Shown: piece by piece, positions 30,001 through 48,128 of the stretch
How positions within the stretch are numbered: position 1 is the stretch's first letter
Layout of the letters: the number at the start of each line of letters is the position of its first letter
Assembly: GCA_963729045.1 (NCBI GenBank)
Contig: CAVSMN010000012.1
Coordinates: 288,001-352,000, forward strand
Origin: an uncultured Nitrososphaeraceae archaeon
GTDB taxonomy: Archaea; Thermoproteota; Nitrososphaeria; Nitrososphaerales; Nitrososphaeraceae
Reading direction: 5' to 3'
Length of the DNA stretch: 64,000 bases
Position numbers and translations under genes: made by a program
Notes under the pieces: model-generated
Told to the model about the DNA's origin: nothing
The model's input: only the letters and a program-made list of their open reading frames with translations
Databases searched by the model: none

Positions 30001-30225
30001 TCTTTATCCATTTTTTTATATTAGAATTATTATATTTATCAGATCATTTTACCAATTCTAGTTCGATATTTTAATCGTTAAAAGTTCCAGAGCAATATAG
30101 AGCCATATAGATCACTGATATCCTGATGGTAGCATACTAGGAAAATAACAGAAAACAGAGCGTAGATACAAAAATAGAATAGTAATTTTGAATTCGAATA
30201 AGGATTACTATTTAAAAAATAAGGA

Positions 30226-31128
30226 TCAATTATTGGAAGAAAACCCTTTGGAATCCAACTGGTGAGCCAGATTTGCAGCAATTGCGTTGGCCTTTAGAAT
30301 CACCAGTTCAATCGTGTCAGGCGAAGTATATCCAGATTCTGAAGCTAAGGACAATGCATGTTGTTTTGCTTTTAAGAGGATTAATGGCATTGATTCCTTT
30401 GTAAAGTAAACTGCCTCTACTGAAAGGGATAAAGCCTCTTGGAAGGATTTTATTAACTCCTGCACGTAATCTGAAACTACTATCTTTAGGTCCTTTTCCT
30501 TAAATTCGAGCCCTTCAGAAATTGCAAAATTAACTGAAACTCCTGCTTCGATTGGTTTTACATCCAACTTACTTAATAAAGCTGCTAACTTTTGCGGGAT
30601 AACATCACCTGCTTTAGCGACAATCGTGTCTTTAGAAACCCATATTGTCCCTTGATCTATCTTGGTAGGGACATTAGATTCTTTGAACTCTGACAAAACT
30701 GGACCTGGATTTATCCCTGTATTGCCAGCGGGAATGACAAGTTCATTAGGGGCAATATCGCCGCCTTTAGCTGCCATGAATATTTTGTTTTTATCAAAAG
30801 TTAAATTCATTTTAAATGGACTAAGGTTGGTAAACATCAATGCGCATTGGCCTTCTAGCTCCTTGTTGAGAAATTCCAACCCTTTAACATCCTTAAAAAT
30901 TTCTTCAAAAGCTCTTTGAGCAACCTTGTTTTTTATAGTTATTATCTTGATCTCGTTTCTGAATTTTTTCCTTATTGCCATGAGTTGAGCTGACCTTACT
31001 TTTGTCATCCTAGAGAGTGCAATTACATTATAAGATTTTGCTAGGTTTTGCAAATTTTGATATAAATTAACTTTCCTTTCTGGATAAGATGTTCTTCCTA
31101 ACTTATTGATGATAGCTGTTTGACTCAT
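30226..31128 (-). CDS. rpl10: 50S ribosomal protein L10 (P0)
   Basis: YPERKV, KNKVA, AKGGDIAP, IPAGNTGINPGP, LLSKLDVKP. Confidence 0.95.
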   Translation of the reverse strand: MSQTAIINKLGRTSYPERKVNLYQNLQNLAKSYNVIALSRMTKVRSAQLMAIRKKFRNEIKIITIKNKVAQRAFEEIFKDVKGLEFLNKELEGQCALMFTNLSPFKMNLTFDKNKIFMAAKGGDIAPNELVIPAGNTGINPGPVLSEFKESNVPTKIDQGTIWVSKDTIVAKAGDVIPQKLAALLSKLDVKPIEAGVSVNFAISEGLEFKEKDLKIVVSDYVQELIKSFQEALSLSVEAVYFTKESMPLILLKAKQHALSLASESGYTSPDTIELVILKANAIAANLAHQLDSKGFSSNN

Positions 31129-31146
31129 TACGATTATCCCTATCGC

Positions 31147-31800
31147 TTATTTTCCAAGGGTACTTGCTTTTAATGCTTTACCCATGGTAAATTTTATTAT
31201 AGCATTTCTAAAGTTCTTTTCTCCTTGAGGGAGTTTTTTTTCAACGGAAGCGATGACCGCACTGGCATTTGCTACCAGCTGCTCATCGGTCATTGACTCG
31301 TCTCCTATTTTTGTTGACATATTTAATTGATTTTTGGATCGTATTCGTGTTGATGATCTTAACCTTGATGCTATGTTTTCTATGGGTGCGCCGTAGGGAA
31401 CAGGAGTAGGCATTTTACCTTTTGGACCCAAAAACTGACCTAATGATCGACCAACAGATGACATCAAAGTTGCATCTGCAAGGAAAAAGTCATAAGAGCG
31501 AACAATTTTTCTGGCTTCCCTTCGATTTGTTCCAATCCTATCTAGAGTATCAGGTTCCATCACCTGATCGACACCTGCTTTCTTTGCTCTTAACCCCATG
31601 TCTCCTGTTGCGAGCATACAAAGTGAAGATCCCTTCTTAGTTGGATTAGGTAATACTACTATTTCGTTGACACTAAATCCTTTTTTGACATCAATGTCTT
31701 TTAATACTAAAGTTATTTCAGCCGATTGAGCAAAATTTCTTTTTGGAGTGGCCTCTCTTGCCTTTTTTACAAGCTCCTTTAATTGATCATTGTTAAACAT
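31147..31800 (-). CDS. rpl1: 50S ribosomal protein L1
   Basis: KRNFAQSAEI, LGQFLGPKGKMPTP, IGDE.M, KFTMGK. Likely start is ATG 31800. Confidence 0.95.
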   Translation of the reverse strand: MFNNDQLKELVKKAREATPKRNFAQSAEITLVLKDIDVKKGFSVNEIVVLPNPTKKGSSLCMLATGDMGLRAKKAGVDQVMEPDTLDRIGTNRREARKIVRSYDFFLADATLMSSVGRSLGQFLGPKGKMPTPVPYGAPIENIASRLRSSTRIRSKNQLNMSTKIGDESMTDEQLVANASAVIASVEKKLPQGEKNFRNAIIKFTMGKALKASTLGK

Positions 31801-32361
31801 GAATATATAATGTAGACGCGCAAAGGCCATTTAAAATCGTTTTTACGACAATTCAAATGTACGGTGACAGTCACTCGCCATCCTAACTGGATCCAGTATT
31901 TTTTCCCATTTTCTGGTCAGCCTCGTATTCCATAATCCCTATTGACTGCATCCCTTCATGCCAATTTTGCCAGATCATAATTCAGAGTCTTGTCATTAAT
32001 GAAATAGCAATCTACCAACCCGAGCTAATGACCATTCTATTATTTGCATCCATGTCTCATAAAACTGGGACTTTTATTCCTTAAAGTCAATTAAAAATAA
32101 CTTTTGTAGGATTCATAAAGGACTACAAAAATCCTTCGTGATAATCACATCCGAATGACATTGTATTCAGCAAATACGTCTATAATTTTTCCTTTTTTCA
32201 TTAAATTATTTGCCATAGGATGAATACCATTTCTCAATTCTAATTCTAAAGCGCCAAACATTCTCCATTCTATACTATCCGACCAGCATAGAGTCGTATC
32301 TTTGGATGTAATTACATGTAAACATAAAACAGAGAAGGACATCTTCAAATGATGTCAATTA

Positions 32362-34023
32362 TCATAAATTACTGATTTTATTTATATAATTGATTAATCT
32401 TTTATCAAGAAAATCAAATTGAAAATCAGTAAGCGAGCCCCTTCTATACGTATTAAATATATCTCTCCTAAGGTTTTCCAATTTGATAATGCTTTCAGTT
32501 TTGTCACCTACGTCAGCATCCTGTATGGCTTTATTAGTTATCTGAATTAGCTTGTTAAACTTTCTTCTCTGTCCACCCTTAAAAAACCATCCAAGTAAAA
32601 CAGAAGCCATACCAGTTATACCTCCTATTAGGAAAATATATTGTTCAGTCGAAAGTGTTGGTCTAAAATTAGCAACAATGTTACCGTATTCGCTTGACTT
32701 AAATTTTAGAGGGTTTTCAGTGCTGAATGCAAGTCCTGACCACGAGTCAAATGTGTATCCTCTTTCAGGCACTGCCGTGCAAGTTGCTTCATTGTCAGTT
32801 GTGATAATAGTACTATTTTGATTTAGATTTTTTATACCATTGCACTCTATGAATCCAGAATTTTCCGGACTAGTCTCAAACCCTATTCTTACTATACTTT
32901 CATCCTCTTTTCCGTCGATTATTGAAAGAGTATTGGAAGCAGTATTCGTAATGTAAACTAGGTTAGTAATGGGGTCTATTGCCACAAAACTTGCAATCAA
33001 TGGGAATTTTATATTTGTGGGAATTGTAGAAGGATATCCTTCTCTTTCGGTAATTGAGGAGGGATTTACTGGGATATCTTTTATTTTCTCCAAGGATGTT
33101 TCGTTTATTACACTTACAGTATTGGATCCTATGTTACTTACATATACCTTACCTGTGAGCGGATTAATTTTCACACCTACGGGAAACTGACCAGTCTGAA
33201 TGGTCTTTAACACAGTGCCGTCAGTTCCATTTATCAAAGAAAGTGAGTTTGAAGCGTAATTTGTCACATAGACAAGGTTTCTTTTCTCATTAATTTCAAT
33301 TCCTACTGGAGAATTGCCAGCAGGGATGCTTTTTATGAAATTGTAATTATCTTCATCTATGACTGTGATAGTTGAATTAGCAATGTTTGAAACGTACAAT
33401 TTATTTGATTGGGGATCAATGCCGATACCATAAGGGGTACTTATGCCGCTTATCGTCCTGATAACCTTATTAGTTATTCCGTCAATCACAGAAATTGAAC
33501 TTGAATCAATATTTGTAACATATACCCAATTACTTGATTGATCCACAGCAACTTGAACCGGGGATTTACCGACTGTAATATTGTCGATTACTGAATCCGT
33601 CGAACCATCAATTACCGTAACGTCGTTTGATCCTCTGTTTGTCACATAAATTCTATTATTAAATTGATTCGCGTCTATACTATATGGAAATATCCCAGTC
33701 TGAATGGTACTTATTAATTTGTCCGTTTTTGCATCAAATACCGAAACTGTATTGGAATACTGATTTGCGACATAGATTTTATTAGTGAATGGATTCAAGG
33801 TTATTCCTACCGGATAGCTTCCTGTATTGAATCCCGAAATGAACTTCTTTTCATCTTCTTGAGCTATTGCCATATTATTTGCTATTGTATTATTGCCTTG
33901 GTCAATGTTCATCCGTCCAGACGAAATTAGTCTGTCTGTAGCAGGCGGAGGATCAAAGTAAATTTGTAGATTCACCAAGGTTAAAAAAATAAATGATATG
34001 AAAATCAGCAACCAAGACTTCAT
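32362..34023 (-). CDS. YVTN/YncE beta-propeller surface protein with InlB-B-repeat-like domain and C-terminal TM
   Basis: Signal peptide, about 7 YV(T/A/S)N..SNTVSVID repeats, P..GYTFDSW, a TM helix and a cytoplasmic tail. Confidence 0.85.
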   Translation of the reverse strand: MKSWLLIFISFIFLTLVNLQIYFDPPPATDRLISSGRMNIDQGNNTIANNMAIAQEDEKKFISGFNTGSYPVGITLNPFTNKIYVANQYSNTVSVFDAKTDKLISTIQTGIFPYSIDANQFNNRIYVTNRGSNDVTVIDGSTDSVIDNITVGKSPVQVAVDQSSNWVYVTNIDSSSISVIDGITNKVIRTISGISTPYGIGIDPQSNKLYVSNIANSTITVIDEDNYNFIKSIPAGNSPVGIEINEKRNLVYVTNYASNSLSLINGTDGTVLKTIQTGQFPVGVKINPLTGKVYVSNIGSNTVSVINETSLEKIKDIPVNPSSITEREGYPSTIPTNIKFPLIASFVAIDPITNLVYITNTASNTLSIIDGKEDESIVRIGFETSPENSGFIECNGIKNLNQNSTIITTDNEATCTAVPERGYTFDSWSGLAFSTENPLKFKSSEYGNIVANFRPTLSTEQYIFLIGGITGMASVLLGWFFKGGQRRKFNKLIQITNKAIQDADVGDKTESIIKLENLRRDIFNTYRRGSLTDFQFDFLDKRLINYINKISNL

Positions 34024-34170
34024 ATACTGACTCTGACTTTATCAATTATAATTTTTTGTATCGCACCTCATAATATCGAAAAGAAGTGATTAGGAATATT
34101 GTTCTCGATAAATCATACTTAACAATTATATCTGCAATAATCTTATTAAATTAAAAGGGATTTAAAAGGC

Positions 34171-34608
34171 GTGGTACAAGTAAAAACCCAGAGCTTATCA
34201 CTAGCTGTACTATTATGTTTTTATGTCATTTTTGTTTTTTCAATTACTCCGTTTATGACCAATTTTCCTGGGATGTCTTTTGAGGTAACTGATCAAAACA
34301 ATGAAGGTGTGTTTAGTTCTTTAAGTAGAAATTTTGAACAAACCGTTGAGGAAATAAACAATGCTGATGAAAAGAGCACTACCTCAACCTCCCCCTCCTC
34401 CTCAACCGACTCCTCTAACAATGCTGATGAAAAGAGCACTACCTCAACCTCCCCCTCCTCCTCAACCGACTCCTCTAACAATGCTGATGAAAAGAGCACT
34501 GCTTCTAATGTCCCAATTGCAGCTTTCGAATCTTCTAATCTCATTAGCAGCAATTCGACCACAACTGACGATTTGGAGAAAAATAATGAAACCGGTTTCA
34601 TCAAGTAA
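34171..34608 (+). CDS. Secreted or membrane-anchored Ser/Thr-rich protein with 20-aa tandem repeats
   Basis: N-terminal hydrophobic helix and NNADEKSTTSTSPSSSTDSS repeats. Confidence 0.65.
   Translation: MVQVKTQSLSLAVLLCFYVIFVFSITPFMTNFPGMSFEVTDQNNEGVFSSLSRNFEQTVEEINNADEKSTTSTSPSSSTDSSNNADEKSTTSTSPSSSTDSSNNADEKSTASNVPIAAFESSNLISSNSTTTDDLEKNNETGFIK
34357..34500 (+). repeat. Perfect 60-bp tandem repeat, 2.4 copies
   Basis: Unit AACAATGCTGATGAAAAGAGCACTACCTCAACCTCCCCCTCCTCCTCAACCGACTCCTCT at 34357 and 34417, with a partial copy at 34477. Confidence 0.95.
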
Positions 34609-34983
34609 AATTAGTAACCATGCCTCTCATGCTGAATCGGGAATTTTTAGTAGACCAAGTAATTCAAAGTAACCCTTAACTACTGAAATTTGAATTAATG
34701 ATTAGAATTTAGCTTGTTCAATACCGAAGTTACTTTAATTTTCCATTGAAAAACTCTTCGTAATCAATTAATGCATTAACGAATTTCAATGGTGCCTTTT
34801 TTTCAGCCAATAAAGGACAATGAATTGATCTACAATTTGTAAATATCAAGATTAGAAGTTTAAATAACGTTAATTAAAATGGCAACACACGTGTTAATTA
34901 TTTAATTTTGAGTAGATTTACATGGTATTTAACAGAATTTACTAAAAAAAGTTAGGAATTCCAGATATAGAGAATGAACTGTC

Positions 34984-36165
34984 CTATGCTACTATATCTG
35001 CTATTGCCTCACCACTCGAAGTGCTGTTTGTGGCATTGTTTATTGCTCCTGTATCATCAATCGATTGTAGGCCCTTTTCGGCAAGTACTTCATTCAACAA
35101 GGTCGTATCATATATGCCTGAAAGATTCGGTCGATCTTTTCCCTTCTCTATAAATCCAAGGTCATATGCGTCATTTGCACTCTTAAAGAGGGTTAACTTC
35201 AATGGATCATATGTGAGTTCTAGATTACTGTAGGCCTTATCTAGTACACTTTCTGATATCTCTTGACCAGTAAGTTTCTTTAATTGAGTATTAAATTCCT
35301 TTGCTGCTGCTGCTGTATCGTTGTTTATCTTTAGTGTTTCATCTACGTGAGCTTCAAGTAATTTCTTTATGATTTCAGGATTCTTTTCAAGATAGTCTGT
35401 TCTGACAATTAAGTTGCCAGTTACAAACTTACCATCTGGCCATAAACTTTTCTCATCAACGAATACTTTACCGCCTGCTTCTTGTACTAATCTTGTTGCC
35501 CAAGGTTCAGGTACCCATGCTCCATCAATTTCACCTTTCAAGAATACTGTTAGTATATCCGCATTTGCAATAGGTAACACTGTTACGTTTCCACCATTTT
35601 CTACAGTATTGAAACCATTATCAATCAAGTATTTTCTCAAGGCCACATCTTGTGTGTTACCTAATTGAGGGGATGCAAATTTCTTTCCACCTAGGTCGTT
35701 GACTGTTTCTATCCCTGAATCATTTCTAACTATGAATGAGGCTCCACCACTAGATGCACCAGAAATTACTCTAAGATCTTTGCCTCCTGTAAGAAGATAT
35801 CCGTTTATAGCAGGGTTAGGACCAATGTAAGTAGCATCAATTCTATCTGCTAATAACGATTCAATTGCAGATGGGCCAGCATTAAATCTAAATGTTTCAA
35901 CAGTAACATTATCTCCTAACGTCTTCTGAAAATCTCCATTATTTAATCCAATTACGGCTTGTGAATGAGTGATATTTGGAAAGTACCCAATTCTCAAAGT
36001 CTTTTTCTCATCACCTAATGATTGTGCACTGGCAATCGATATGGGTGCTGATATCAATGCTATTGTGGTAATAATCATTGTAAAGACCAAGATAATTTGT
36101 CTTCCTCTATTATCAAAATTCTTTGGAATCTTGATACCTACTTTTTCTGACTTATTAATCATCAT
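34984..36165 (-). CDS. ABC transporter substrate-binding protein, SsuA/TauA (aliphatic sulfonate-type) family
   Basis: LRIGYFPNITHSQA, F.AGP..IE.L, YIGPNPA, ASPQLGNTQD, GAWVPEPW, and an N-terminal anchor. Confidence 0.88.
   Translation of the reverse strand: MMINKSEKVGIKIPKNFDNRGRQIILVFTMIITTIALISAPISIASAQSLGDEKKTLRIGYFPNITHSQAVIGLNNGDFQKTLGDNVTVETFRFNAGPSAIESLLADRIDATYIGPNPAINGYLLTGGKDLRVISGASSGGASFIVRNDSGIETVNDLGGKKFASPQLGNTQDVALRKYLIDNGFNTVENGGNVTVLPIANADILTVFLKGEIDGAWVPEPWATRLVQEAGGKVFVDEKSLWPDGKFVTGNLIVRTDYLEKNPEIIKKLLEAHVDETLKINNDTAAAAKEFNTQLKKLTGQEISESVLDKAYSNLELTYDPLKLTLFKSANDAYDLGFIEKGKDRPNLSGIYDTTLLNEVLAEKGLQSIDDTGAINNATNSTSSGEAIADIVA
35575..35769. repeat. 195-bp exact direct repeat, copy 1 (copy 2 at 37179..37373)
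   Basis: Base-by-base identity from TAACACTGTTACG to CACCAGAAATTAC. Confidence 0.95.
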
Positions 36166-36611
36166 GCGTATAACGTTTAACGTTACTTATTATTCATTTT
36201 CAATGTGCCATTTTTTTTAATATTGTGCAGTTTAAGCATATATTCTGCGCCGACCGAAAAGTTATAATATTATGCCATCTATACCCAGGGACACAATTGT
36301 GCTCTATCATTATGTTGATAATTTGGTACAAGTTGTTGATTGAAGGCAAGCGATATGATCTGCCTATAATTAAATTTGAAAGTATCGTGACTCAAAATCA
36401 AAAAATCTAAAGGAGCGCGATTTTGAAAAATGATGTTAGACTTTTTGCCTATCATAATATTAATGGGTAGAAAATACATACTTGATTTTACGAAATTGTG
36501 CTACCTGATCCTTTTCATCCCGGCATATTTGATAGAATCCACCTCCGTTTACTAACAAATGGTTTAATTTACTAATGATTAGTAAATTAAACAACAAACC
36601 ATCATTACTGA

Positions 36612-37769
36612 TTATGGAACGGGGCTCAGACCTTTGCTCTTCAGTACTTCGTTTAAGAGACCAAGATCATAAATACTTGATAAATCTATTTGACGACTGC
36701 TTCCTAGATTTATATATCCCAAGTCGTTAGCGTCCTCAGCTATCTTGTTAAGCGATGCTGAGAGGGGATCGTAGGTAAATTCTATCCTTGATAATGCATC
36801 TTTTATTTGGTCCTCTGGATAAGTCTTACCAGTAATGTTCTTTAGCCCTTCATTAAATGCAACCGTTAATTCTTGAATATTTTTTTCATCCGTTTCAGTA
36901 TTATTAGTTTTTGATAACTTTTGATTTATCCATAATGTTTCATTGATATGTGCTTCAAGCAGTTTCTTTATAATTTCGGGATTATCTTTAAGATAATCCG
37001 TTCTAGCTAAAATATTGGCTGTCACGAATTTACCTTCTGGAGGCCAGAGCTCCCTTTCGTCGACCAAGATAAATCCTTTTCCTTGTTCTTTTAGAATGGC
37101 ACCTAAAGGTTCAGGTACCCATGCCCCGTCAATCTCTTTATTTAGAAACAATTTGATTATGTCCGCGGGTTTTGCTGCTAACACTGTTACGTTTCCACCA
37201 TTTTCTACAGTATTGAAACCATTATCAATCAAGTATTTTCTCAAGGCCACATCTTGTGTGTTACCTAATTGAGGGGATGCAAATTTCTTTCCACCTAGGT
37301 CGTTGACTGTTTCTATCCCTGAATCATTTCTAACTATGAATGAGGCTCCACCACTAGATGCACCAGAAATTACCCGTAAACCCTCTCCTCCCGAAACAAT
37401 GTAACCATTAATAGTAGGGTTAGGACCAACATAAGCTACATCAATCTGTCCTGCATATAGAGCTTCAATTGCCGAGGGACCGGTTGTAAAAACAAACTCT
37501 TTTACTGAGATGTTACCTAAATTCTTTTCATTTTCTATTATTTGTCTAAAATCTCCATTGTTTAGGCCAATTATGGCTTGAGCATGATTCAAATTTGGAA
37601 AATACCCAATTTTTAAAGAATCAGCCTTCGCATTTACGGTTTGACTGGTAGATCCAGTTGTACTATTATCCTGACCCATCAATAAAGACCAATAGAAATT
37701 ATAATTAGAAGATATGATAACTACGATAATTATGGCAAATGAAATACCCAACTTTAATTTTGAATCCAT
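36612..37769 (-). CDS. ABC transporter substrate-binding protein, SsuA/TauA family (second paralog)
   Basis: LKIGYFPNLNHAQA, YVGPNP, ASPQLGNTQD, GAWVPEP. Confidence 0.88.
   Translation of the reverse strand: MDSKLKLGISFAIIIVVIISSNYNFYWSLLMGQDNSTTGSTSQTVNAKADSLKIGYFPNLNHAQAIIGLNNGDFRQIIENEKNLGNISVKEFVFTTGPSAIEALYAGQIDVAYVGPNPTINGYIVSGGEGLRVISGASSGGASFIVRNDSGIETVNDLGGKKFASPQLGNTQDVALRKYLIDNGFNTVENGGNVTVLAAKPADIIKLFLNKEIDGAWVPEPLGAILKEQGKGFILVDERELWPPEGKFVTANILARTDYLKDNPEIIKKLLEAHINETLWINQKLSKTNNTETDEKNIQELTVAFNEGLKNITGKTYPEDQIKDALSRIEFTYDPLSASLNKIAEDANDLGYINLGSSRQIDLSSIYDLGLLNEVLKSKGLSPVP
37179..37373. repeat. 195-bp exact direct repeat, copy 2
   Basis: Identical to 35575..35769. Confidence 0.95.
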
Positions 37770-37965
37770 GTTATTTTTTTTGTAAATGGGATGTATTAAT
37801 AATCAGAAATAGGCAAAAAATGTATATTACACGTGGTTTTAGCAATAATGTTGTAATACTGACTCACAAAGGGTTATTTTCAGTATTTCAACTCCTTTAT
37901 CCTAACTTATCACGGTTCAATAAAAGTATGTGTAGGAGAAAAAGTGATGTTAGGTCAAAATGAAA

Positions 37966-38904
37966 TCATTTATTTTCAATGTCCTGCTCTTGTCTTAATC
38001 CCCATTTCTCTCTTACCCTTTCTTCTAGTTTTGCAAAGATTACTTTATCAAATAACATTCCTAATGCGAAAATAGTAATCATAGATGCTATTATCTGATC
38101 CATCAGTTGGAATTCTCTACCTACTAGTAGTATGTGTCCTATCCCTACCGCAGCAGCCATAAGTATTTCCGCTCCAATCAAAGCGTGCCAAGCAAATGAC
38201 CACGCTTGTTTTATTCCTATTATTAATGCAGGAGTGGCTGCTGGTATCATTAAGTATCTAAATAATGAGAAACCTTTAGCTCCCATATTTCTTGCAGCCT
38301 TTAGATATATGGGAGGTATGTTTCTTATTCCACTGTAAGCAGACATCATGACTGAAAATACTGAACTCATTATGACTACAAATAATATTCCTATATCATT
38401 TAGACCGATAAGCAGGATAGCAAATGGAACCCAAGCAACACTCGGAAAAGACTGTAATCCTACCGCAAAAGAACTCATTGTTTTTCCAAAGCCACTAAAT
38501 CTTACCATTGCAAGTCCCACACAAACCCCGATTCCTATTGATGCAGCAAATCCAATCAAGAGCCTATAAAGAGTCATTCCTATGCTTATCGTCAAAGTGC
38601 TATCTAGAGTTAGGTCATAAAACGATTCTACTACCATTATAGGAGATGGTAGTGATACTTTTGGCCAAATGCCACTTAAATACGCGAGTTGCCATAGGCC
38701 AATAAAAACTGCAATAAATAAAATGGTATTTGAGAATTCATCCAACCTGATTTTCTTTTTCAAGGGAATCTTGCTTTTATTTGGGCTTTTTTCGTCTAAA
38801 GAAATGATTTCTGATTCTTCGATGGAGTGCGATTCATCTAAATCATTTTCAATATCTTCCTTATTTTTCCGTTTATTTTCGTCATCTTCAGGAGCCCTGT
38901 ACAA
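37966..38904 (-). CDS. ABC transporter permease, SsuC/TauC family
   Basis: LPSP..V, GLQSFPSVAWVP, EAA-like AARNMGA, AW..LIGAE. Confidence 0.92.
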   Translation of the reverse strand: MYRAPEDDENKRKNKEDIENDLDESHSIEESEIISLDEKSPNKSKIPLKKKIRLDEFSNTILFIAVFIGLWQLAYLSGIWPKVSLPSPIMVVESFYDLTLDSTLTISIGMTLYRLLIGFAASIGIGVCVGLAMVRFSGFGKTMSSFAVGLQSFPSVAWVPFAILLIGLNDIGILFVVIMSSVFSVMMSAYSGIRNIPPIYLKAARNMGAKGFSLFRYLMIPAATPALIIGIKQAWSFAWHALIGAEILMAAAVGIGHILLVGREFQLMDQIIASMITIFALGMLFDKVIFAKLEERVREKWGLRQEQDIENK

Positions 38905-39250
38905 AGAAATCCTGTTTATTATTAGGCCTCCCGTATATCAATTTTCTTAGGCTTTTTACAAATTTAACTTCTTCAATGCATAATCACTATCACAACTTAC
39001 CTAACTTGAAATCGACCACTCAATTAGATTAGTTATCAGTGGACCATCAAATAAGTTATCAACTTTTTTCGTTTCTTGCCATTATTTGAAAATTATTTTA
39101 AGAAAAATCGATTCTGATATTGGACATTCGTTCAAAATTTTATAAAACTGTAATAAAGAAAACAAAATCAAAATAATATCCTGAAGGAATATTGTAAGAA
39201 CAATGATACAATAATGATTTCGTTATGTGTCTTAAGTTAGCCTGTAATTA

Positions 39251-40237
39251 TTATATCCATTCTGCCTTGACCAAATTGTAGACTTTTTTTCTTGTGTCGT
39301 CTAAGCTATTCTTTTCAATTATCAAACCTTGTTCTTTGAGTTCTTCGACTGAAGCTTGAACTGTTCTTCGTGGTAGATTGGTAACATAGATCAATTCGCT
39401 TTGATCAATAGGGTGCTTACTCCTAATTATGTAGTGAATAAATTTTGTGGCAGGACTACCTTCAGGACCTTTCTTTACTGGAGTAATGCTGAAGCTTGCC
39501 TTAGATAGGAAACCTCTCCTTTGGGACTCTATAGATAATACATTATTGAGTTTTATCTCACCCATATTTACTCGCTGTCCAAATTCTGCTACTAATACTG
39601 CTTGCTGAATCTCTAACGGAGCCTCAAAAATTATGCTGTTAGGATTAATTTTTGAAGTAATAGCGGAAAGTAAATTCCATTTGATATCTCCTTTTTCATC
39701 ATAGATACCCACGTTGTACCCCAAATTTGCTTCCAGGACTATTTTTTCTTGGCTAATCTCTAGAATTTCATTCATCTTCTTTATTGTTTCATCAACCGAT
39801 AGTTGCCTTCTGGGATCTTTGTGCCCGATTTTCCATTGAACCCTCATATCATACGAATCAACTATTTTTAGGATCTTCTTTTTTTCCTCAAAGGCAAGAT
39901 GAATACTATTTTCACTTATTTCAATTATATCAAACCCAATTGTTTTTGCACTCTCCATAAATTTTTCAAACACTTTTTCACGTATCGCGTATTCGGTCAA
40001 CGTACTCCCTGTAGAAACTAGAACATTTGATTGATGGTAAAAATCAATTCTATTAATGAGACTTTGTTGTTTTAGAAGAAGAGGAAATGCTCCATATATC
40101 TTGACCATGTCAATATAAGGAGATATAGTTTCAAAATTCTCTTTGTCAAGACCTTGAAATTTGTCTATAATGTATGTAATACCATCATGACGGGGTTTTT
40201 TATGATCTATTCTGTCCTCAATCAGGGTTTCTAGCAT
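39251..40237 (-). CDS. Phosphosulfolactate synthase (ComA)-like TIM barrel fused to a C-terminal winged-helix DNA-binding domain
   Basis: KPR..GITYIIDK, YIDMVK, EISE, GIYD.KG, IIFEAP..QQ, FG..VN, E.QRRG. The tail is PATKFIHYII...DQSELI..TNLPRRTVQ..VEELKEQGLI...DTRKKVY. Likely start is ATG 40237. Confidence 0.85.
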   Translation of the reverse strand: MLETLIEDRIDHKKPRHDGITYIIDKFQGLDKENFETISPYIDMVKIYGAFPLLLKQQSLINRIDFYHQSNVLVSTGSTLTEYAIREKVFEKFMESAKTIGFDIIEISENSIHLAFEEKKKILKIVDSYDMRVQWKIGHKDPRRQLSVDETIKKMNEILEISQEKIVLEANLGYNVGIYDEKGDIKWNLLSAITSKINPNSIIFEAPLEIQQAVLVAEFGQRVNMGEIKLNNVLSIESQRRGFLSKASFSITPVKKGPEGSPATKFIHYIIRSKHPIDQSELIYVTNLPRRTVQASVEELKEQGLIIEKNSLDDTRKKVYNLVKAEWI

Positions 40238-40611
40238 GAATGGATGTATGCAGAATTTACATATAATTAAATTGATATATGCATTTTTGAAAGTATACAC
40301 TAGACAAGAAGCATTAATTTTCGCATAAGATGTCAAATTGACACATTATCAAAGTTACTTCTTTTATCACTTCATTTCACTTCAATTTAGTCTATTATTA
40401 TTTAATGCAGCTAATTCTAGGTTCCATGACTCATCCTATCAAGTGGGTTAATTCTGACTATGTATGTTTTATTATGTTTTAACAGATTATTTGGGCTTAT
40501 GTCTAGTAGTAACATACCGACTGTAACTAATATTCCATTACAAGAACTAAACCGGGTTTCTAATTGATACCGTAGTTGACTCCTTTTTTTTTAAATGGGC
40601 TGACAATAATA

Positions 40612-40636
40612 CCTTGAAAAGCATCCATTTTCAAGG
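40612..40636. promoter_or_regulatory. Inverted repeat CCTTGAAAA-N7-TTTTCAAGG (candidate operator or terminator)
   Basis: Perfect 9-bp arms between the ABC ATPase stop and the ComA-HTH start. Confidence 0.4.
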
Positions 40637-40798
40637 ATTGTTATTAATCAGTAAAAATTATGCGAAATATTGTATTAAAATAAAAACAAAATAAACGGGG
40701 GAAAAATAGTATTGAGACAAATAGATATTTTGCTGCCTTTGATAATGACTTCTGTTTTACCACATTACCCTGATTTTGTAGTATTAGAATCCTTAACA

Positions 40799-41671
40799 TT
40801 AATTTACTTTGGAAATAATTGTGCGGTCTAGATTTTGATTAATGGTTTCAAACTCTGTGATAGGACCATTTACAAATAAGTCATTTGATTCAGAAATAAT
40901 TTCTCGGGTAATTGATTCCACAAGAGGATGATCAATACTGCGTGGTCTCGGTATATTCACCACAACTTGCTTTTTTATATTCGCCAATTTGGGAGACATA
41001 ACAATAACTCTGTCACCCAATGCCACTGCCTCATGAATGTTATGAGTTACAAACAAAATAGTCTTTTTGGTTTCCTGGTGAATCCTCAATAGATGTGAAT
41101 AAAGCATTTTTCTAGTTTGAACATCTAAAGCAGCGAAAGGTTCATCCATTAGCAAAATCTTAGGATCCAACGCCAATGCTCTGGCGATCGCAACTCTTTG
41201 TTTCATTCCTCCAGATAGCTGGTGAATATAGGCATGGGTAAAATTGGTCAATTGAATCATATCAATTAATTTCATGACTTTTTCTTCCCTCTTATCTTTT
41301 GGAATTTTTGCAATTTTTAAACCAAATTCTATATTTTCATATACTGTTAACCAGGGAAATAAAGCTCCTTCCTGAAAAACTACCACCCGATCCGTGCTTG
41401 GAGATAGAGCAATAGGTTTATCATCAACAAGTATCTCACCATCAAATTTATTATCTAGACCAGCAACCAAATTAAGTAACGTACTTTTTCCACACCCAGA
41501 AGGACCTACAATAGTAACAAACTCTCCATTTTTGATGTTTAAACTAAGTTTATTGATAACCGTATGTTTGGAATGAATCTTGTTCTTTTTTTCAGTATAT
41601 CCTTTAGAAATGTTTTCGAGTTTTAAAATTGAACTATCAATAGATTGAATAGGATTTGCTAAACTAGACAT
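40799..41671 (-). CDS. ABC transporter ATP-binding protein, SsuB/TauB family
   Basis: GPSGCGKS, FQEGALFPW, LSGGMKQR, DEPFAALD, FVTH. Confidence 0.93.
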   Translation of the reverse strand: MSSLANPIQSIDSSILKLENISKGYTEKKNKIHSKHTVINKLSLNIKNGEFVTIVGPSGCGKSTLLNLVAGLDNKFDGEILVDDKPIALSPSTDRVVVFQEGALFPWLTVYENIEFGLKIAKIPKDKREEKVMKLIDMIQLTNFTHAYIHQLSGGMKQRVAIARALALDPKILLMDEPFAALDVQTRKMLYSHLLRIHQETKKTILFVTHNIHEAVALGDRVIVMSPKLANIKKQVVVNIPRPRSIDHPLVESITREIISESNDLFVNGPITEFETINQNLDRTIISKVN

Positions 41672-42923
41672 AATTATTACATAAACAGAAAATTATATAA
41701 TTAAATCCCTATACGCAACATTCGCCGATATGTGCCAGACTTGCACACTTAATGATGATTATGCGTCTTTTAGGAAAAAAATAAAAAAATTGTATAGTCA
41801 ATATTTGGTATATATCTTGGTTTATGCCATACATACAATAGATTATTCCTAAATCGATGCCATATTTATTTATCTTACAAAAAGGTAGTGATAGCGAAGG
41901 AATTTAAAATCGGTTATTTGAGATTATTTTAGAGTCAAGTCTAAATTTACGATTTGGGATATTTTTGTCGTTAATGTGGTTTACAAAATTGTTTGTTAAT
42001 CATCAATAATTTAAAGATCGATAGGTAATTCACTTGTCAATATTTACCCCCTTTATTAAATCAAATCAAATGATGACAAGGATTCAGACTTCAGACCCTG
42101 TTGTATATTGGAATTTGGTATAAACAATTTCTAAATAAGTTCCTATATGCAAGATCTGCATCTATTAGCTAAATCTGGCATATTATTAAACGGATCCAAA
42201 TATACTAATAACATTATATTTTATTAGGAATGATACTTTTTATGGATATATTCATATAAACCCGTTACTTTTTTGTATTTTTTTTATAAAGAGAGTTTAA
42301 TAACTATGAAATACCAAGTATTGATGATTGGCAGTCCCATCCAATCACAAAGATACTCCACGAAGAAACACAAAAGCAGTACGTATTCATTATAGTAGTG
42401 ATTCAGGTAATACCTAAATCGATGCCAGCACATCGTTAAGGTTATCAACCTGAATCACAATATCATTAGTATAAAAAGTAGGATACCCAACAAGGTTTAT
42501 GGACAGTCTATCATATTAAGAAATTGAAGTATTCTCTAAAAGTGACTAAATGATGCCATCTCTCTCTGTAGCTTAATAAAAAACCATAGCAAATACTAAA
42601 AAAGAGTGATTTTGACTATTTGGAATAAAAACCATCAAGAGCTTCGGTTATATTTTACATACATCTGTCTGTTTAGCTTTTCTACATATTACGGACGAAA
42701 CTGACTTTTAACACAAATCTACATGCGAATTGTGGATACCAGATTTAATAACCCTTTTGAGACCGGGCAACTGTCACAATAAGGGTCTCTGATCTTCAGT
42801 AAACTGCTACGTGAGAATCATATGTATCTATTCAAAAACCAATGCTTCAATAAATAAATTTAACAGGATAACAAAATTTTCTTTGCTTCTAATTGTAATT
42901 TCAATAGGGACATTTCTTCTCTA

Positions 42924-43853
42924 TCAGTTCTCACATTTTTTTATAGATTTTGCTGGTACGCCTGCAACAATGTCTTCATCTACAATATCATAAATAACAG
43001 AACTGCCTGAACCCACAATAACTTGATCGCCTATTTTTATCTTATTTTTTATCGTACTATTTAGCCCTAACCAACAATTATTGCCAATGATAGTACTACC
43101 ACCTACTATAGTTCCAGCTGTTAGCTCGGTATTTTTTCCAATATTGACATTATGGGCTATATGGCATAAAGCATCAATTTTGGTTCCTTGTCCTATAATC
43201 GTGTCAGAGAGAGATCCTCGTGCGATAGAGCAATTTGCAAATATTTCTACATCGTTTTCTATCACCACTTTACCATAATGAGGGAATTTTTCTAGATCTA
43301 AAGTATCACATGCTCTTTCAAATGCAAATCCATCAGAACCAATGGTTGTATTTGGTTGAATAGAACAATTATCTCCTACTTTACAATTTTGCAAATTTGC
43401 TTTTGATTCTATTATAGTATTATTACCAATAGAACAATTATCACCGATAACTACGTAGTCACCAATATAACAATCCCTTCCTATCTTTGCTGAATCGGCT
43501 ATAACAGAACTTTTGGAAATACCAACCTTAGGCAGAGCATGGGTAATACGCTTTGCAAGTCTTGTAAATTCAAGTCTAGGATTATCAACAAATATCAATA
43601 GTTGTCCGTCCTTGTGATTTGGATATACCAGCCCCTCCATACTTTTTTTACAAAGTATCACACCAGCGTTTGATTGTGAAATAGAGAGCATGCCTCTGTA
43701 TTCCTCAGATGAACAAAATGAAACATACCAATAATTTCCATTGTATAAAGAGGGCAAACTTTTTGTCAATTTTGACTTTATTGGTGAATCCTGGCCTTCT
43801 AACGTATAACCTGAATCAGTAAGGTGCTGCAATAATGATTCAACGGTCCACAA
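42924..43853 (-). CDS. LpxD-like hexapeptide-repeat acyltransferase
   Basis: VDNPRLEF, IGSDGFAF, G.V.IENDVEI.AN.SI.RG.L.DT.IG.GTKID..CHIAHN, GVPAK. Confidence 0.85.
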   Translation of the reverse strand: MWTVESLLQHLTDSGYTLEGQDSPIKSKLTKSLPSLYNGNYWYVSFCSSEEYRGMLSISQSNAGVILCKKSMEGLVYPNHKDGQLLIFVDNPRLEFTRLAKRITHALPKVGISKSSVIADSAKIGRDCYIGDYVVIGDNCSIGNNTIIESKANLQNCKVGDNCSIQPNTTIGSDGFAFERACDTLDLEKFPHYGKVVIENDVEIFANCSIARGSLSDTIIGQGTKIDALCHIAHNVNIGKNTELTAGTIVGGSTIIGNNCWLGLNSTIKNKIKIGDQVIVGSGSSVIYDIVDEDIVAGVPAKSIKKCEN

Positions 43854-43919
43854 TTGTACAATTCATCCTCATCTTTGTTCCCTATTTTTGCTTCGAATAA
43901 AACTTGTAATTTGAGTAAA

Positions 43920-44141
43920 CTAAAAAGAAAATCTTATCCATCTAATTTCTTTTAGTTTGCAAAAGGGACAAAGCATTTTGTGACTGTCTAAATAAATACT
44001 TCCCGTTGTTTCAGAAAAAGAGGCATTCCAAGAACATTGGTTGCATCTCAAAGTATATTTGAAAGTCGAAGGCTTCAAATACATGTCCAGATTATCCTTT
44101 TCAATTCTTAATCCAACGGAATGATTTAGTTGCAAACTCAT
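43920..44141 (-). CDS. Small zinc-finger protein
   Basis: CNQC and CPFC pairs in 73 aa. Confidence 0.6.
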   Translation of the reverse strand: MSLQLNHSVGLRIEKDNLDMYLKPSTFKYTLRCNQCSWNASFSETTGSIYLDSHKMLCPFCKLKEIRWIRFSF

Positions 44142-44413
44142 GAGTAGTTATTACAATAATTGTAATAAAAGGAATGTTGTATATGATATATTGGAATAGT
44201 ATACGCAAATAATTCACATTCTATAAGCTTTAGTTTTGGAATTTATACAAAGCGTATAATAATACAAACACAAGTGACCCAGTGCATCTGTTACTATTAA
44301 TTAAGGAGATCCTTTCAGAATTCTTATAAATAATATGCTGTTTGTGGTTAATTAATCCATGTAAATAAGAAAATAGAAAAATTTGAAAGAGTATAAAAAT
44401 AATCGGTCTTTAC

Positions 44414-44764
44414 TTACCTCATCATGTTTCTACATTCTTGGGCACATTTCTTACACATTTCAGCACATTCTTTACATGCTTCCATTTTGTTACCCATTTT
44501 TTCACATTCCATTGCACATGCGTCACATATGGTAGCACACATTTCACACATTTGCTTTGAGTATTCGCTTCCACGAGCCATCATCATTGCTGCCATTGTA
44601 CACATCGAAGCACAGTCTCTGCACATCATCATACATCGGCCCATCATACCGGCCATTTCAGTGTTGGACATACATGCAGTACAACAGGCTTCGCACATCA
44701 TTGCGCATTCATTGCAAGTGTCAATACAAGTTTGGTTTTTTTGATTAATAAGAGTAGTGTTCAT
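44414..44764 (-). CDS. Four-helix-bundle copper storage protein (Csp3/DUF326-like)
   Basis: 21 Cys in CxxxC/CxxC periodicity over 116 aa, with no export signal. Confidence 0.9.
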   Translation of the reverse strand: MNTTLINQKNQTCIDTCNECAMMCEACCTACMSNTEMAGMMGRCMMMCRDCASMCTMAAMMMARGSEYSKQMCEMCATICDACAMECEKMGNKMEACKECAEMCKKCAQECRNMMR

Positions 44765-45222
44765 ACCATTAATAAGTTAAAAATATTATATAAACTTATC
44801 TAAAAAATATGAGAAAAACGTAAAATATATGCAAATATTGCGTATAAATTATGAAAATATAAAAGAATTATAAAATAAATATGTGATTTAAACATATAGC
44901 GATATACATAATAGCGTCGATTTAATTTTATCGTACCTGTTTATTAACTATTGAATTAATATCAAACCAACTATGAAATGAAAAAGTCGAAATAATATTG
45001 TATGATTTGTGTACCGGATTTTTAAATGCTAATTACATTTGAACTGATCAGGTTTATTAAAAATGATATCAAGATGTAAGATCTCAACACATTAGATGTT
45101 CAGATTCAAAAATGTTCTTTTATAAAATAAAGGGACTAGATCGATTAATACTTTATACTGATCATCTCTCTTTTATCTTTTTTTGGAAAACATGAGTATC
45201 AGAAATTCAATGAATAAATTCT

Positions 45223-45718
45223 CTATTTTATTTCTTTGATTCTGCCAGTTCTTACATCATATACAAACCCAGTTACTGAAGCAGCGTCAAGTAGGAATGG
45301 AGTGTTCCGAATTTTGTCGACTTGTTTTTTTACATTTTCTTCTAAATCGTCAAATGAATGAAATACTATGCCTGAAGCATTCGAATTGTATTTTTCCGAG
45401 ATTTTCTTTTGCAGGTCTTGGTCACTAAAGGTCAACATGCCACAGTCTGTATGATTTATTACAAAGAATTCTTCTGTTCCTAATAATTCGTGTGAGATTA
45501 TTAATGAGCGTATGGCATCTTCGGTAGCAATTCCGCCAGCATTCCTAATAATATGGGCTTCGCCGATCCCGAGTCCTAATAAATCATTTACATTCAATCT
45601 TGCATCCATGCATGCGAGGACGGCAATTTTTTTTGAGGGAGGCAATGGACAAATCTCCATCCTTGAAACTTTTAGCGTATTCCTCATTCTGAGATTTTAT
45701 CGACTCCAATTGTGTCAT
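45223..45718 (-). CDS. Beta-class carbonic anhydrase; N-terminus frameshifted near 45645
   Basis: ACMDAR, IRNAGG, HTDCG (Zn ligands C, H, C), GFVYDV.TG. True start is probably ATG 45718 (MTQLESIKSQNEEYA). Confidence 0.92.
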
Positions 45719-46290
45719 AAAATTATATGGTTAATAAATATAGAATTACCTTCCGAAATAGGTTATTTAGGTCTTTTTCATGTGAAAATTTCATCTTGCT
45801 CTATAAATTGGCGTATATCTTGACTGCTTTATGTTGTCTTTTTTAGACAGAGCATATGTCGAAGCCAAATAATTTAGGATTAAAGTTTATAGTAAAATAA
45901 ACTGGTAAACAAGCCAAACACTAGATAAAACAATTTATCCTTGTAAATACAATTAAGGATAGACCTGGAAAAAGGCTTGTAGGTTTACCTTTAAAGTGAC
46001 TGGTAAATAAAACCTCTTACATGCCCAACAATGTTCCAAATTTTCTGTAATTGGGTGCTCGAACCTACTAATGAAATTGATTCTTATAAATCAATAAAAA
46101 ATTCTGCTGTCATCATTCCAAAATTATATTAAAGTTAACAAATTCTCAATTCATTACAAATTAAATCGTAAATCTTAATTGTTTGGATATGATCCCGTCC
46201 CTATCAAAAAAAATTCTAGTTATTTCCAATTCATGATTTCAATGCTTGATGGGTTATTGTCTAGGACTCCAATTTAGACCGCTTGAAAGT

Positions 46291-46542
46291 TTACGGTGAT
46301 TCAAGATTTAGCGTTAATTGTAACTGAGAAATCTCGTTGTCTATGATTTGTGTATCTTCACTTGATCTAATTTGCTTGGTAAGTTTCCTACAAGCTTGGA
46401 TTTGAGCCCGATAGATTTCTGTCTTTTCCAGATAGAGACTATTAAGAGGCTCTATGAACGAATATAGGATTTCTCTCCTTTTCGAATTACCGCCAATTTT
46501 TGCATCTATTTGGACTAGTGCTTCCCCTTCAAGTTCCCTCAT
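46291..46542 (-). CDS. Hypothetical helical protein
   Basis: 83-aa ORF with an amphipathic pattern. Confidence 0.5.
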   Translation of the reverse strand: MRELEGEALVQIDAKIGGNSKRREILYSFIEPLNSLYLEKTEIYRAQIQACRKLTKQIRSSEDTQIIDNEISQLQLTLNLESP

Positions 46543-47270
46543 CTATTTTGCCCCCTTTGTATCTCGTATTTTATTGATTTGTGAACTGGTTTGCCAGTTT
46601 TACTTTCTAAACAGCAAGTCATTAAAGAATAAAGAAGACTATTTTTTTTCTTGGTTAAGGTTATTTTATGCATGTGTATTAAGATAAAAAACGTACACAT
46701 AAAAAGGATTTTAAATATGCAAAAAAAGACAAATCTAAGCAGACAACAAGCTTATTTACATTAATTTCCATTTTGAAGTTTGGAATTTCACTCGGATTTG
46801 GATTTAAGAATATGAAATGGTGATAAACAAAATTCATCCGAGTCAGAAAAATTTGTTCCCTAATTTGTATGGAGGCATATTAAAATAATATTCTGAAGGG
46901 GTTCAAATTAATATAGATTACTTAAAAGAAGTTGATCCTAATCAAAATATATTGTGCTAATGAGTGAAATGATCTCATAAATGGATAAATAAGATAGAAA
47001 ATAAGATAGAAAAATGTTTTAGAGTCGACTTATATTTGCTCTATCAAAATAACTCAACAAATGTTTTTAGTAATTTAAAAAATCCACTATGTTATTTATC
47101 ACTATCGAGTTAGCTCAGTGACATTTATATTTCAAATAATTTGATAACAAAACATACTCAGATAAAATCTAATGATATAGTGACTTACATAATTTGCATA
47201 TAATTACAGAATTTTTCACATAACAGAATGATATTAAGTATCAATAGGACTATTATTATTGTAATAATTA

Positions 47271-47918
47271 ATGTCATTCGGAATTTTCAAAGAAATTGAA
47301 AGACTAGTTGAGTATATTCCCATTGAGACGGATATGGACGGAATAGGCAAATTATCAAGTGATGCTGATATCGACTCTCAATTTTATTTTGAAGATCTTG
47401 ATAGAATAGCTGTAAGACTAGGAATCTTGGAAATTGGGAAAAGCACCATAAGTCTGCGAGACATAATTAAACTGTTAAACAAATTTTTAAAGGATGCAAG
47501 AGTTGAGGAGTTTGTAGAAAGCCCACGAAAATATGAACAATTGTTGACCAGTGGGTCTGGTTTGCCATTGAAAAATTTGTTATTTGAATTTAGTCTATCG
47601 GCCTTGGCTGGGGACAAATTAGATGCAAAAATATATTTAACTCATACATATCATATCCTGGGTCTGAGAAGAAGTTTAGTCCTACTCCTTTCGATTATTG
47701 TGAATGAAATTGAGAACATAAAATACGATGCTGACGTAAGAGAACTATTCACACTTTTAGCGCTGATGTCGGAGCCAAATAATGTTGATATTCATTTTAG
47801 TATAGATGAAAATGGGTTTAGCAAAAGATATAGCGGATACTTACAGGAACTTCAAAAATTAACATTACCTAAGAGAGGTAAAGATCCAATTGATCTTCAT
47901 TCCATAAAATTCTATTAG
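47271..47918 (+). CDS. Hypothetical protein
   Basis: 215-aa intact ORF. No motif recognised. Confidence 0.65.
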   Translation: MSFGIFKEIERLVEYIPIETDMDGIGKLSSDADIDSQFYFEDLDRIAVRLGILEIGKSTISLRDIIKLLNKFLKDARVEEFVESPRKYEQLLTSGSGLPLKNLLFEFSLSALAGDKLDAKIYLTHTYHILGLRRSLVLLLSIIVNEIENIKYDADVRELFTLLALMSEPNNVDIHFSIDENGFSKRYSGYLQELQKLTLPKRGKDPIDLHSIKFY

Positions 47919-48128
47919 AACGATAATAATTTTTTGATCTTACATTAATAAATTTTTACCTCATTTTATTCCAGTTAAATTCGTATAAATTGTAACCATA
48001 AATGATAGAATACACGAAATAGGTACAGATCTTACGGAGTTATCTAATGAATATGAAAATTTCACACCATTCTAAATTATTTTGCATATTTGAGAGTAGT
48101 AATATACAGGTTAAATCAATTAATCATA

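Follow-up and report, generated by a model that had tools for sequence, protein, structure and literature searches.

Gene Content of the Locus and the Fused Gene

The DNA analysed here is a stretch of 64,000 nucleotides (hereafter the window; positions are counted from its first letter) of contig CAVSMN010000012.1 from the genome of an uncultured Nitrososphaeraceae archaeon (GCA_963729045.1, positions 288,001–352,000 of the forward strand). Within a cluster of genes for an ATP-binding cassette (ABC) importer of the sulfonate type, it carries on its reverse strand, at 39251–40237, a gene whose product (the query) joins a barrel of the ComA (phosphosulfolactate synthase) family to a winged helix. 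Such a fusion had been proposed by an earlier reading of the DNA made without database searches (the sequence-only reading), and domain search and structure prediction both bore it out. The open reading frame (ORF), which begins with an ATG at 40237, encodes 328 amino acids and its coordinates include the stop codon. A longer ORF can be drawn mechanically in the same frame from a TTG at 40336; the 328-residue form agrees in length with nearly every one of the top 120 homologs listed.

Residues 12–244 (39506–40204, reverse strand) form a ComA-type (beta/alpha)8 barrel, as identified by Pfam, alignment to a solved ComA structure, structural modelling, Foldseek and column statistics. The ComA family PF02679 matched these residues with an E-value of 1.4e-63 and 215 bits against a gathering cut-off of 25.2. 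Sequence matches in the PDB were 1QWG, the ComA of M. jannaschii (E 5.9e-32, 30% identity), and 1U83, the phosphosulfolactate (PSL) synthase of B. subtilis (E 1.9e-19). An AlphaFold2 model of the 328-residue protein, based on an alignment of 102 sequences, had a mean predicted local distance difference test score (pLDDT) of 90.1. Compared by Foldseek, this model matched 1QWG with an E-value of 2.6e-20, a template modelling (TM) score of 0.88 normalised to the target and a root-mean-square deviation (rmsd) of 2.6 Å, and 1U83 with an E-value of 9e-14 and a TM score of 0.86, likewise normalised to the target.

The barrel is followed by a linker of about 15 residues (about 245–259; 39461–39505, reverse strand), situated in a stretch of low model confidence (about 241–260, pLDDT 65–69), and then by a MarR-like winged helix-turn-helix (residues 260–322; 39272–39460, reverse strand) that was recognised by a profile search, in the model and by Foldseek, and by Pfam with a score below the gathering cut-off. 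The C-terminal ~65 residues are modelled as helices at 262–274, 279–286 and 290–302 and a two-stranded beta-wing at 306–322, with a recognition helix that begins LPRRTVQ and a basic wing, DDTRKK. Modelled alone, this domain had a pLDDT of 88.3, and its top Foldseek matches were MarR-family DNA-binding domains (TMq 0.63–0.79), several of them in DNA complexes. A winged-helix profile compared with the PDB returned AF2008 first (3e-6), followed by ST1889, PH1519 and MarR proteins, with regulators of both archaea and bacteria represented. Pfam and the model place a sensor-type domain and a DNA-binding-type domain within one polypeptide. The N- and C-terminal helices which flank this domain in MarR proteins and build their dimer interface are absent from the query, where three helices and the wing are all that comes after the linker, the chain ending 6 residues past the wing, so any oligomerisation must come from the barrel.

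Conservation is strongest in the tail. Residues R290, R291, T292, Q294, D314, R316 and Y320 are invariant in one alignment (A2), and over 21 diverse fused proteins there are four invariant columns, namely R291 and L300 in the winged helix and G220 and R240 in the barrel. Among 38 Nitrososphaeraceae homologs that are less than 66% identical to the query overall, identity is 68% in the winged helix versus 59% in the barrel.

Remodelling of the Barrel Pocket

The reaction given for ComA is the conversion of phosphoenolpyruvate and sulfite to phosphosulfolactate (PMC9457059).

Five sequence motifs had been listed by the sequence-only reading as altered from those of ComA, and all five were seen when the query was read residue by residue against 1QWG or against the family consensus. 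KFGWGT has become KIYGAF, PGGT has become TGST, TEVGKK has become WKIGHK, GLRGDT has become GFLSKA, and IEGRESG has become LEAN-LGY with the deletion of one residue. Within these motifs, H139 of WKIGHK had to be withdrawn as a typical change, as it is unique to the query and other homologs have K or R at this position.

The extent of the change was scored over 21 near-invariant columns, defined as those at least 90% conserved in 76 unfused ComA representatives. Full conservation of the catalytic residues was not seen, the query keeping 16 of the 21 columns against a median of 21 and a minimum of 13 in the unfused proteins. Its losses are K63R, which is clade-wide, and G78S, E136K, G162S and N227E; E136 and N227 are each found in 74 of the 76 representatives. 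Also altered are R171N, E172L with the accompanying one-residue deletion, R244L and T248S, at columns conserved in 64–68 of 78 unfused rows (81–87%), together with G110N in the barrel pocket and D247A, the latter at a column where conservation is lower (D in 51 of the 78 rows).

In the model, the near-invariant columns lie where the eight strands end C-terminally, on the side that usually carries the active site in TIM barrels, and the lost residues are found at the ends of strands b3, b5, b6 and b8. The mapping onto a structural model that had been suggested as a check placed the altered residues on the catalytic face; they are derived within the fused clade. Among 113 Nitrososphaeraceae homologs spanning 57–100% identity to the query, S78, N110, K136 and E227 are present in all 113 and W135 and N171 in 112, while E136K is common also to a sister branch (P0125/P0129; SH-aLRT 87). 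This distribution indicates that the pocket was rebuilt once in the ancestor of the Nitrososphaeraceae and was then held fixed, rather than decaying at random. A derived pocket that is kept in this way would suit a site that binds a specific ligand.

The Fused Family and Its Relatives

A HMMER search of 1.84 billion representative sequences gave 761 matches at E ≤0.001, of which the best 150 were examined, 99 of these being 235–345 residues in length. The winged helix is present in 21 of the 99 and absent in 78; two of the 78 proteins without the tail fall inside the fused clade, one of them (P0123) being cut at its C-terminus. In quick IQ-TREE and FastTree trees made from the barrel only, the fused proteins came out as one group of 25 rows, with weak support for the group as a whole (SH-aLRT 60, FastTree 0.256). 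The fused label required 2 changes on the tree against a mean of 21.8 after shuffling, with none of 500 shuffles as low, and the clade carries T51L and K63R as signatures. Its members come from Thaumarchaeota/Nitrososphaerota and Thermoplasmata, every database name seen for them was "phosphosulfolactate synthase", and a literature search on fused ComA or Nitrososphaera ComA found no paper. The fusion is an archaeal family without a name of its own and not a one-off.

Distant fused proteins were surveyed in 80 metagenome loci, a biased sample, since they are the top 80 out of 426 relatives of an alignment that has P0137 at its head. At least one of a type I phosphodiesterase, an adenosine 5'-phosphosulfate (APS) kinase, an ATP sulfurylase and a downstream short-chain dehydrogenase/reductase (SDR) is carried by 63 of the 80 loci. 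Counted by gene, the SDR was found at 51 loci, the phosphodiesterase at 35, ATP sulfurylase and a ROK gene at 28 each and APS kinase at 16; a YeeE/YedE-type sulfur transporter was found at 2, and 12 loci had none of the listed genes. Residues E136, R171, E172, N227 and R244 are kept at 63 of 63 sulfate-activation loci. Most distant fused members are probably working enzymes, as they keep the canonical ComA residues and lie in sulfate-activation operons. At loci such as L158 (2538–8990), L164, L192, L203 and L217 there is a conserved operon with the gene order phosphodiesterase, APS kinase, ATP sulfurylase, ComA/winged helix and SDR, followed by a divergent ROK gene. This operon looks like an undescribed route from sulfate to sulfonate, the later steps of which would be carried out by enzymes other than ComB and ComC.

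A canonical pocket was also found beside a transporter. The protein of G038 and its kin keep 20 of the 21 columns and already adjoin an ABC operon, so that relocation to the transporter preceded the change of the pocket. In another Nitrososphaerales group (L050, L051, L054, L059) the gene immediately upstream of the fused one encodes a rhodanese, and at some of these loci another ComA-like stretch occurs close by.

The Same Winged Helix on NAD Kinase

When a profile of the fused family was compared with 401 Thermoproteota genomes, 149 gave a match (E ≤1e-10), nearly all of them through positions 252–323 alone. Most of the matched frames are ~330–380 residues long, and the two that were examined are NAD kinases with a C-terminal helix of the MarR_2 type (L126 727–1737 and L139 700–1713, both forward strand). 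Free-standing winged-helix frames of 74–107 residues also occur among the matches, and in one Nitrososphaerales family (f13) the winged helix was matched in 55 of 56 sampled genomes. The helices fused to NAD kinase and to ComA are 27–31% identical over ~70 residues and have in common the pattern P..K(F/L)V...L..RT(V/L)..AL..L..G.V...D.R..Y. No description of a NAD kinase with a helix-turn-helix was found in a literature search. Judged from these sequences, the winged-helix module is an old archaeal add-on to metabolic enzymes, and its presence on NAD kinase means that fusion alone is no proof of lost catalysis.

Genome Setting and the ABC Transporter Cluster

The source genome (2.85 Mb in 22 contigs, 87% complete) has two fused genes, the copy in the window and a 62%-identical paralog on contig 14. 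No unfused or canonical ComA was found, and a third ComA match, on contig 7, was under the Pfam cut-off. The sequence-only reading had noted that the window lacks comB-, comC- and comDE-like genes; for ComB (PF04029) and ComC (PF02615) this could be extended to the 87%-complete genome, in which neither was found, while comDE was not searched.

The sulfonate-type character of the surrounding ABC cluster, also put forward by that reading, was upheld. Its four genes are all on the reverse strand and encode an ABC ATP-binding protein of 290 amino acids (40799–41671; PF00005, E 1.7e-34; best NCBIfam match SaoA-type, below cut-off), a permease of 312 amino acids (37966–38904; PF00528; SaoP/SsuC-like, below cut-offs) and two substrate-binding proteins (SBPs). 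SBP1 (36612–37769; 385 amino acids) belongs to the NMT1_2 family (PF13379, E 1.3e-25) and scored 147.5 with TIGR01728, below the cut-off of 163.5, whereas SBP2 (34984–36165; 393 amino acids; PF13379, E 3.5e-33) scored 198.2, above that cut-off, and is placed in the SsuA family. SBP1 and SBP2 are the only binding-protein genes of the NMT1_2/SsuA type in the genome. The window has one permease gene, and two relatives (G012 and G007) have two, flanking the fused gene. Between the ATPase gene and the fused gene there are 561 bp (40238–40798) without a listed ORF.

Synteny of the fusion with SsuABC-type genes, a survey of which the sequence-only reading had suggested, was assessed in 79 species-level loci of Nitrososphaeraceae, with an SsuA-type ABC gene within 2.5 kb taken as adjacency. 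Such a gene was present at 57 of the 79 loci. By type, the count was 15 of 16 for paralog A (at least 76% identity to the query), 37 of 49 for the Nitrososphaera type (N; 53–60% identity) and 5 of 14 for the B type (61–67% identity); where 2.5 kb or more was available to either side of the gene, it was 9 of 9, 17 of 19 and 3 of 5, respectively. Three arrangements were seen. The fused gene is co-directional within the ABC cluster in Nitrosocosmicus; in many Nitrososphaera, as also in G027 and G038 (56% and 39% identity, respectively), it is divergent from SBP-ATPase-permease genes; and at other loci it stands at the end of an SBP-ATPase-permease operon.

The paralog on contig 14 is of the B type (paralog B; G000 contig 14, 17768–18751; L016 8001–8984) and its pocket is remodelled identically. 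Its setting is conserved in the genus, with a PNPOx gene upstream and glyoxalase, SRPBCC and two unknown ORFs downstream. Elsewhere in the genome there are an ATP sulfurylase gene and a gene of the sulfite/nitrite-reductase type, which make sulfite a plausible internal signal.

Other features were recorded around the cluster. A forward-strand ORF of 145 amino acids (34171–34608) has three tandem Ser/Thr-rich units (NNADEKSTTSTSPSSSTDSS) after a hydrophobic N-terminus and adjoins the gene of a 553-residue beta-propeller protein (32362–34023). On the reverse strand, 44414–44764 encodes a Cys/Met-rich DUF326 protein of 116 amino acids, and a near-palindrome, TATGCAAATATTGCGTA, lies at 44828–44844, 64–80 nt upstream of the start of this gene. 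An Rfam scan of 30000–48000 gave no match.

A Candidate Operator

A candidate box with the pattern ATATG-N6-CTGCA is found 12–27 nt upstream of the start of the fused gene, where it overlaps the presumed promoter (40249–40264, reverse strand; ATATGTAAATTCTGCA; exact). Both halves of the box are conserved upstream of orthologs of the fused gene. A second exact copy, ATATGCTTAAACTGCA, lies 61–76 nt upstream of the SBP2 start (36226–36241, reverse strand) and is retained upstream of SBP2 in two further loci (L034 and L043). A third, ATATGCAAGATCTGCA (42145–42160), is also exact and lies in the opposite orientation, on the forward strand, in an ORF-poor gap upstream of the ATPase gene; this gap (41672–42923, ~1.25 kb) has no ORF of at least 60 amino acids wholly inside it. 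The fourth exact copy in the window (61702–61717) is intergenic, 220 nt upstream of a DUF6895 ORF (61937–62368). About 1 kb beyond this fourth box there is a flavoprotein gene (62709–63905) of the sulfide dehydrogenase/pyridine nucleotide-disulfide oxidoreductase type.

With up to one mismatch, the window contains 12 matches, 4 of them exact, against 4.66 ± 2.37 expected, and none of 100 shuffles reached 12. The genome as a whole contains 15 exact copies and none of the reversed control pattern. Upstream regions of the fused gene have diverged save for a block just before the start codon. In the Nitrososphaera-type loci, CTGCAY occurs at -42 to -4 in 31 of 47, against 2 and 0 of these loci in the two 39-nt bins that precede it (-82 to -44 and -122 to -84), and an ATATGC-N9-GCATAT inverted repeat is found upstream in 12–14 of the 47. 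The word CTGCAT is ~8-fold denser upstream of the fused gene than over the whole loci. The conserved upstream block may in part be mere promoter, and the ATATG-N6-CTGCA box is rated here as a good candidate operator and not as a finding.

Some other elements were considered. A perfect palindrome, TGTCAAATTGACA (40331–40343), which lies ~95–105 nt upstream of the gene in the position of a distal element, was dropped because it occurs only in its own genome among 142 loci. Shared 8-mers between upstream regions of the fused gene and those of co-directional SBP genes amounted to one weak word only, and an intergenic alignment from the fused gene to the permease yielded only a promoter-like block, AAAATTGATATAC.

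A Proposed Sulfur Sensor-Regulator

The reading that we favour, and to which we would give an even chance of being correct, is that the query is an enzyme-derived one-component sensor-regulator of sulfur. The ComA-fold barrel would serve in ligand sensing and in oligomerisation, presumably with its catalytic function lost, and its ligand would most likely be a small sulfur-containing anion, for instance sulfite, a sulfolactate-like compound or an imported sulfonate. The winged helices would bind ATATG-N6-CTGCA boxes at the promoter of the fused gene itself and at that of SBP2 and so act there as repressor or activator. Sulfur status would in this way govern how strongly the only sulfonate-type ABC importer of the organism is expressed. 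The proposal builds on observed features, namely the two domains in one chain, a pocket that is both derived and fixed, a winged helix conserved more strongly than the barrel, the recurrent ABC neighbours, the absence of matches to ComB and ComC, and clustered boxes.

The sequence-only reading had likewise taken the barrel to be repurposed for regulation of organosulfur uptake. The fusion, the altered motifs, the ABC setting and the candidate box found before both the fused gene and SBP2 speak for that view, but it cannot lean on the fusion as the mark of a dead enzyme, and several residues of the catalytic face are kept. A number of further results weigh against the proposal. On the side of the protein, the Pfam MarR_2 score of the tail is 21.1, under the gathering cut-off of 27. 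The other partner of the helix, NAD kinase, is an enzyme that cells need, and fused members with canonical residues stand in biosynthetic-looking operons, so fusion is compatible with catalysis. ComA itself is a trimer, which fits two-fold operators poorly. In the barrel, D25, D43, K46, E82, E106, K140, E169, E205, Q211, Q212 and R240 are retained in 113 of the 113 Nitrososphaeraceae homologs, leaving an altered yet active site possible.

On the side of the locus, ABC neighbours are absent at paralog B and at 9 of the 14 B-type loci, and they are present at just 3 of the 80 distant fused loci. Nor did a search for a desulfonating enzyme of the SsuD or TauD kind reveal one next to the transporter; there was no TauD match, and of nine luciferase-like matches in the genome none is adjacent, the nearest being ~8.5 kb before the window. 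As regards the box, 3 of the exact genomic copies lie in the 6-kb ABC cluster, a clustering that is partly post hoc in that two of the three helped to define the pattern. Of the 11 copies outside the window, 9 are inside ORFs (of at least 70 amino acids) and 2 are intergenic, and a regulon search over the 12 copies not in the cluster brought out no sulfur regulon. When a spacing of 5–8 was allowed, few of the regions that precede SBP genes carried the box (5 of 28 of the N type, 4 of 24 of the A type), and TATGC-N7-GCATA, TATGC-N9-GCATA and TCTGCATA, with mismatches, were not above shuffles in the window.

The main rival is a protein of dual function, one that is still an enzyme, either a PSL synthase with altered handling of metal or substrate or the catalyst of a novel reaction, a Michael-type addition or a lyase step, with an imported sulfonate as substrate, and that also binds DNA with its winged helix to control its own gene and those of the transporter, much as BirA, PutA and NadR combine the two roles. 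We consider this somewhat unlikely, and yet it is the strongest of the alternatives because so many catalytic-face residues persist, the eleven named above being invariant, and because the ancestor was probably an enzyme with the same tail. The latter follows from the fused relatives that hold 18–21 of the 21 canonical residues in operons of phosphodiesterase, APS kinase, ATP sulfurylase, ComA and SDR. The changes in the pocket are moreover fixed and not drifting, and E136K together with N227E resembles a rearrangement of charge and not decay. Set against this are the loss of 5 of the 21 near-invariant columns, including E136 and N227, and of R171 and E172 as well, and the score of 175.3 bits with the NCBIfam equivalog for archaeal ComA function (TIGR03849), below its cut-off of 280. 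Partner genes are also wanting, with no ComB, ComC or SDR nearby and the first two not found in the genome. In other fused lineages the site is far more degraded with the winged helix kept (9 of 21 columns in P0143, 10 in P0130 and 11 in P0152 and in P0157), which suggests that catalysis is dispensable in the family.

Two further explanations are less likely than dual function. That the query is an enzyme only, with a winged helix used for assembly or for contact with protein or RNA, as may be the case in the NAD kinase fusions, and with an ABC setting that reflects a shared pathway, appears improbable. It would account for the occurrence of the module in nearly all sampled genomes of one family on NAD kinase and in many other Thermoproteota, and DNA binding by the winged helix is itself a prediction. 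However, no other part of the protein is as well conserved as the residues of the recognition helix and wing (RRT-Q, D-x-R-K-K), the structures nearest to the tail are MarR proteins bound to DNA, a gene divergent from the SBP operon is placed as regulator genes typically are, conserved boxes overlap the promoter and catalytic columns have been lost. It is very improbable indeed that the query is a regulator unrelated to the transporter, with other target genes and an ABC position that is a lineage-specific accident. The different conserved neighbourhood of paralog B and the twelve box copies elsewhere in the genome could be read in this way, but adjacency to ABC genes recurs in three arrangements among families at 39–100% identity, the genome has no second ABC locus of this kind and one box lies upstream of SBP2.

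As to how an enzyme-derived sensor-regulator of this kind might have arisen, we tentatively propose, at rather less than even confidence, a stepwise conversion. A sulfonate-biosynthetic enzyme already bearing a DNA-binding domain in sulfate-activation operons would, in ammonia-oxidising archaea, have become the neighbour of a sulfonate importer, and then a pure TIM-barrel sensor with a frozen pocket.

Comparison with Known Systems

With the ComA of 1QWG and the PSL synthase of 1U83 the query shares the Pfam family, the barrel fold and residues D25, K46, E82, E106, K140, E169 and E205. It differs from both in the added winged helix and in the loss of E136, R171, E172, N227, G78 and the GLRGDT tail. 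The fused proteins of the sulfate-activation operons (L147–L221; Thermoplasmata and Nitrososphaerota) are closer, having the same architecture, clade, T51L and K63R as the query, but they retain the canonical residues, and their genes have an ATP sulfurylase or phosphodiesterase gene on one side and an SDR gene on the other, with no ABC importer as neighbour.

Among regulators, the MarR proteins ST1710, MepR and SlyA share the fold of the tail (rmsd 0.9–2.6 Å over 60–70 residues) and have a similarly basic wing. Enzyme-derived one-component regulators are represented by NrtR, a Nudix domain with a winged helix, and by MocR/GabR, in which an aminotransferase fold is combined with a winged helix. 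The query would follow the same logic, that of an enzyme fold used as sensor beside pathway genes, with a different sensor fold, and to our knowledge no regulator has been described whose sensor is a ComA-type TIM barrel. In E. coli, the ssu and tau genes are controlled by Cbl and CysB. Their role is like the one proposed here, namely control of sulfonate uptake by sulfur status, but these are bacterial regulators of the LysR type and are unrelated to the query in sequence and fold.

Enzyme-derived sensors joined to winged helices are thus already known, as are the ComA and SsuABC families. What seems to be undescribed is the ComA-fold sensor, the fused family with its two contrasting contexts, and a candidate regulator of sulfur uptake in ammonia-oxidising archaea.

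Implications for Ammonia-Oxidising Archaea

The ammonia-oxidising archaea are major soil nitrifiers in which the transcriptional control of sulfur acquisition is uncharted, and the locus described here offers a concrete candidate triplet of regulator, operator and transporter. For annotation, a plain label of phosphosulfolactate synthase could falsely imply the synthesis of coenzyme M or sulfolactate in these archaea. Within the family, TIM-barrel proteins would form a natural progression that leads from enzyme to sensor, which may be useful for the study of pseudoenzyme origins and for sulfite or sulfonate biosensors. If the stepwise conversion proposed above is true, the query would be without precedent among described regulators in having a ComA-fold sensor, the Nitrososphaerota would have in it their first candidate for a regulator of sulfur uptake, and the module on NAD kinase would hint at a wider, undescribed archaeal habit of enzymes that carry their own DNA-binding domain.

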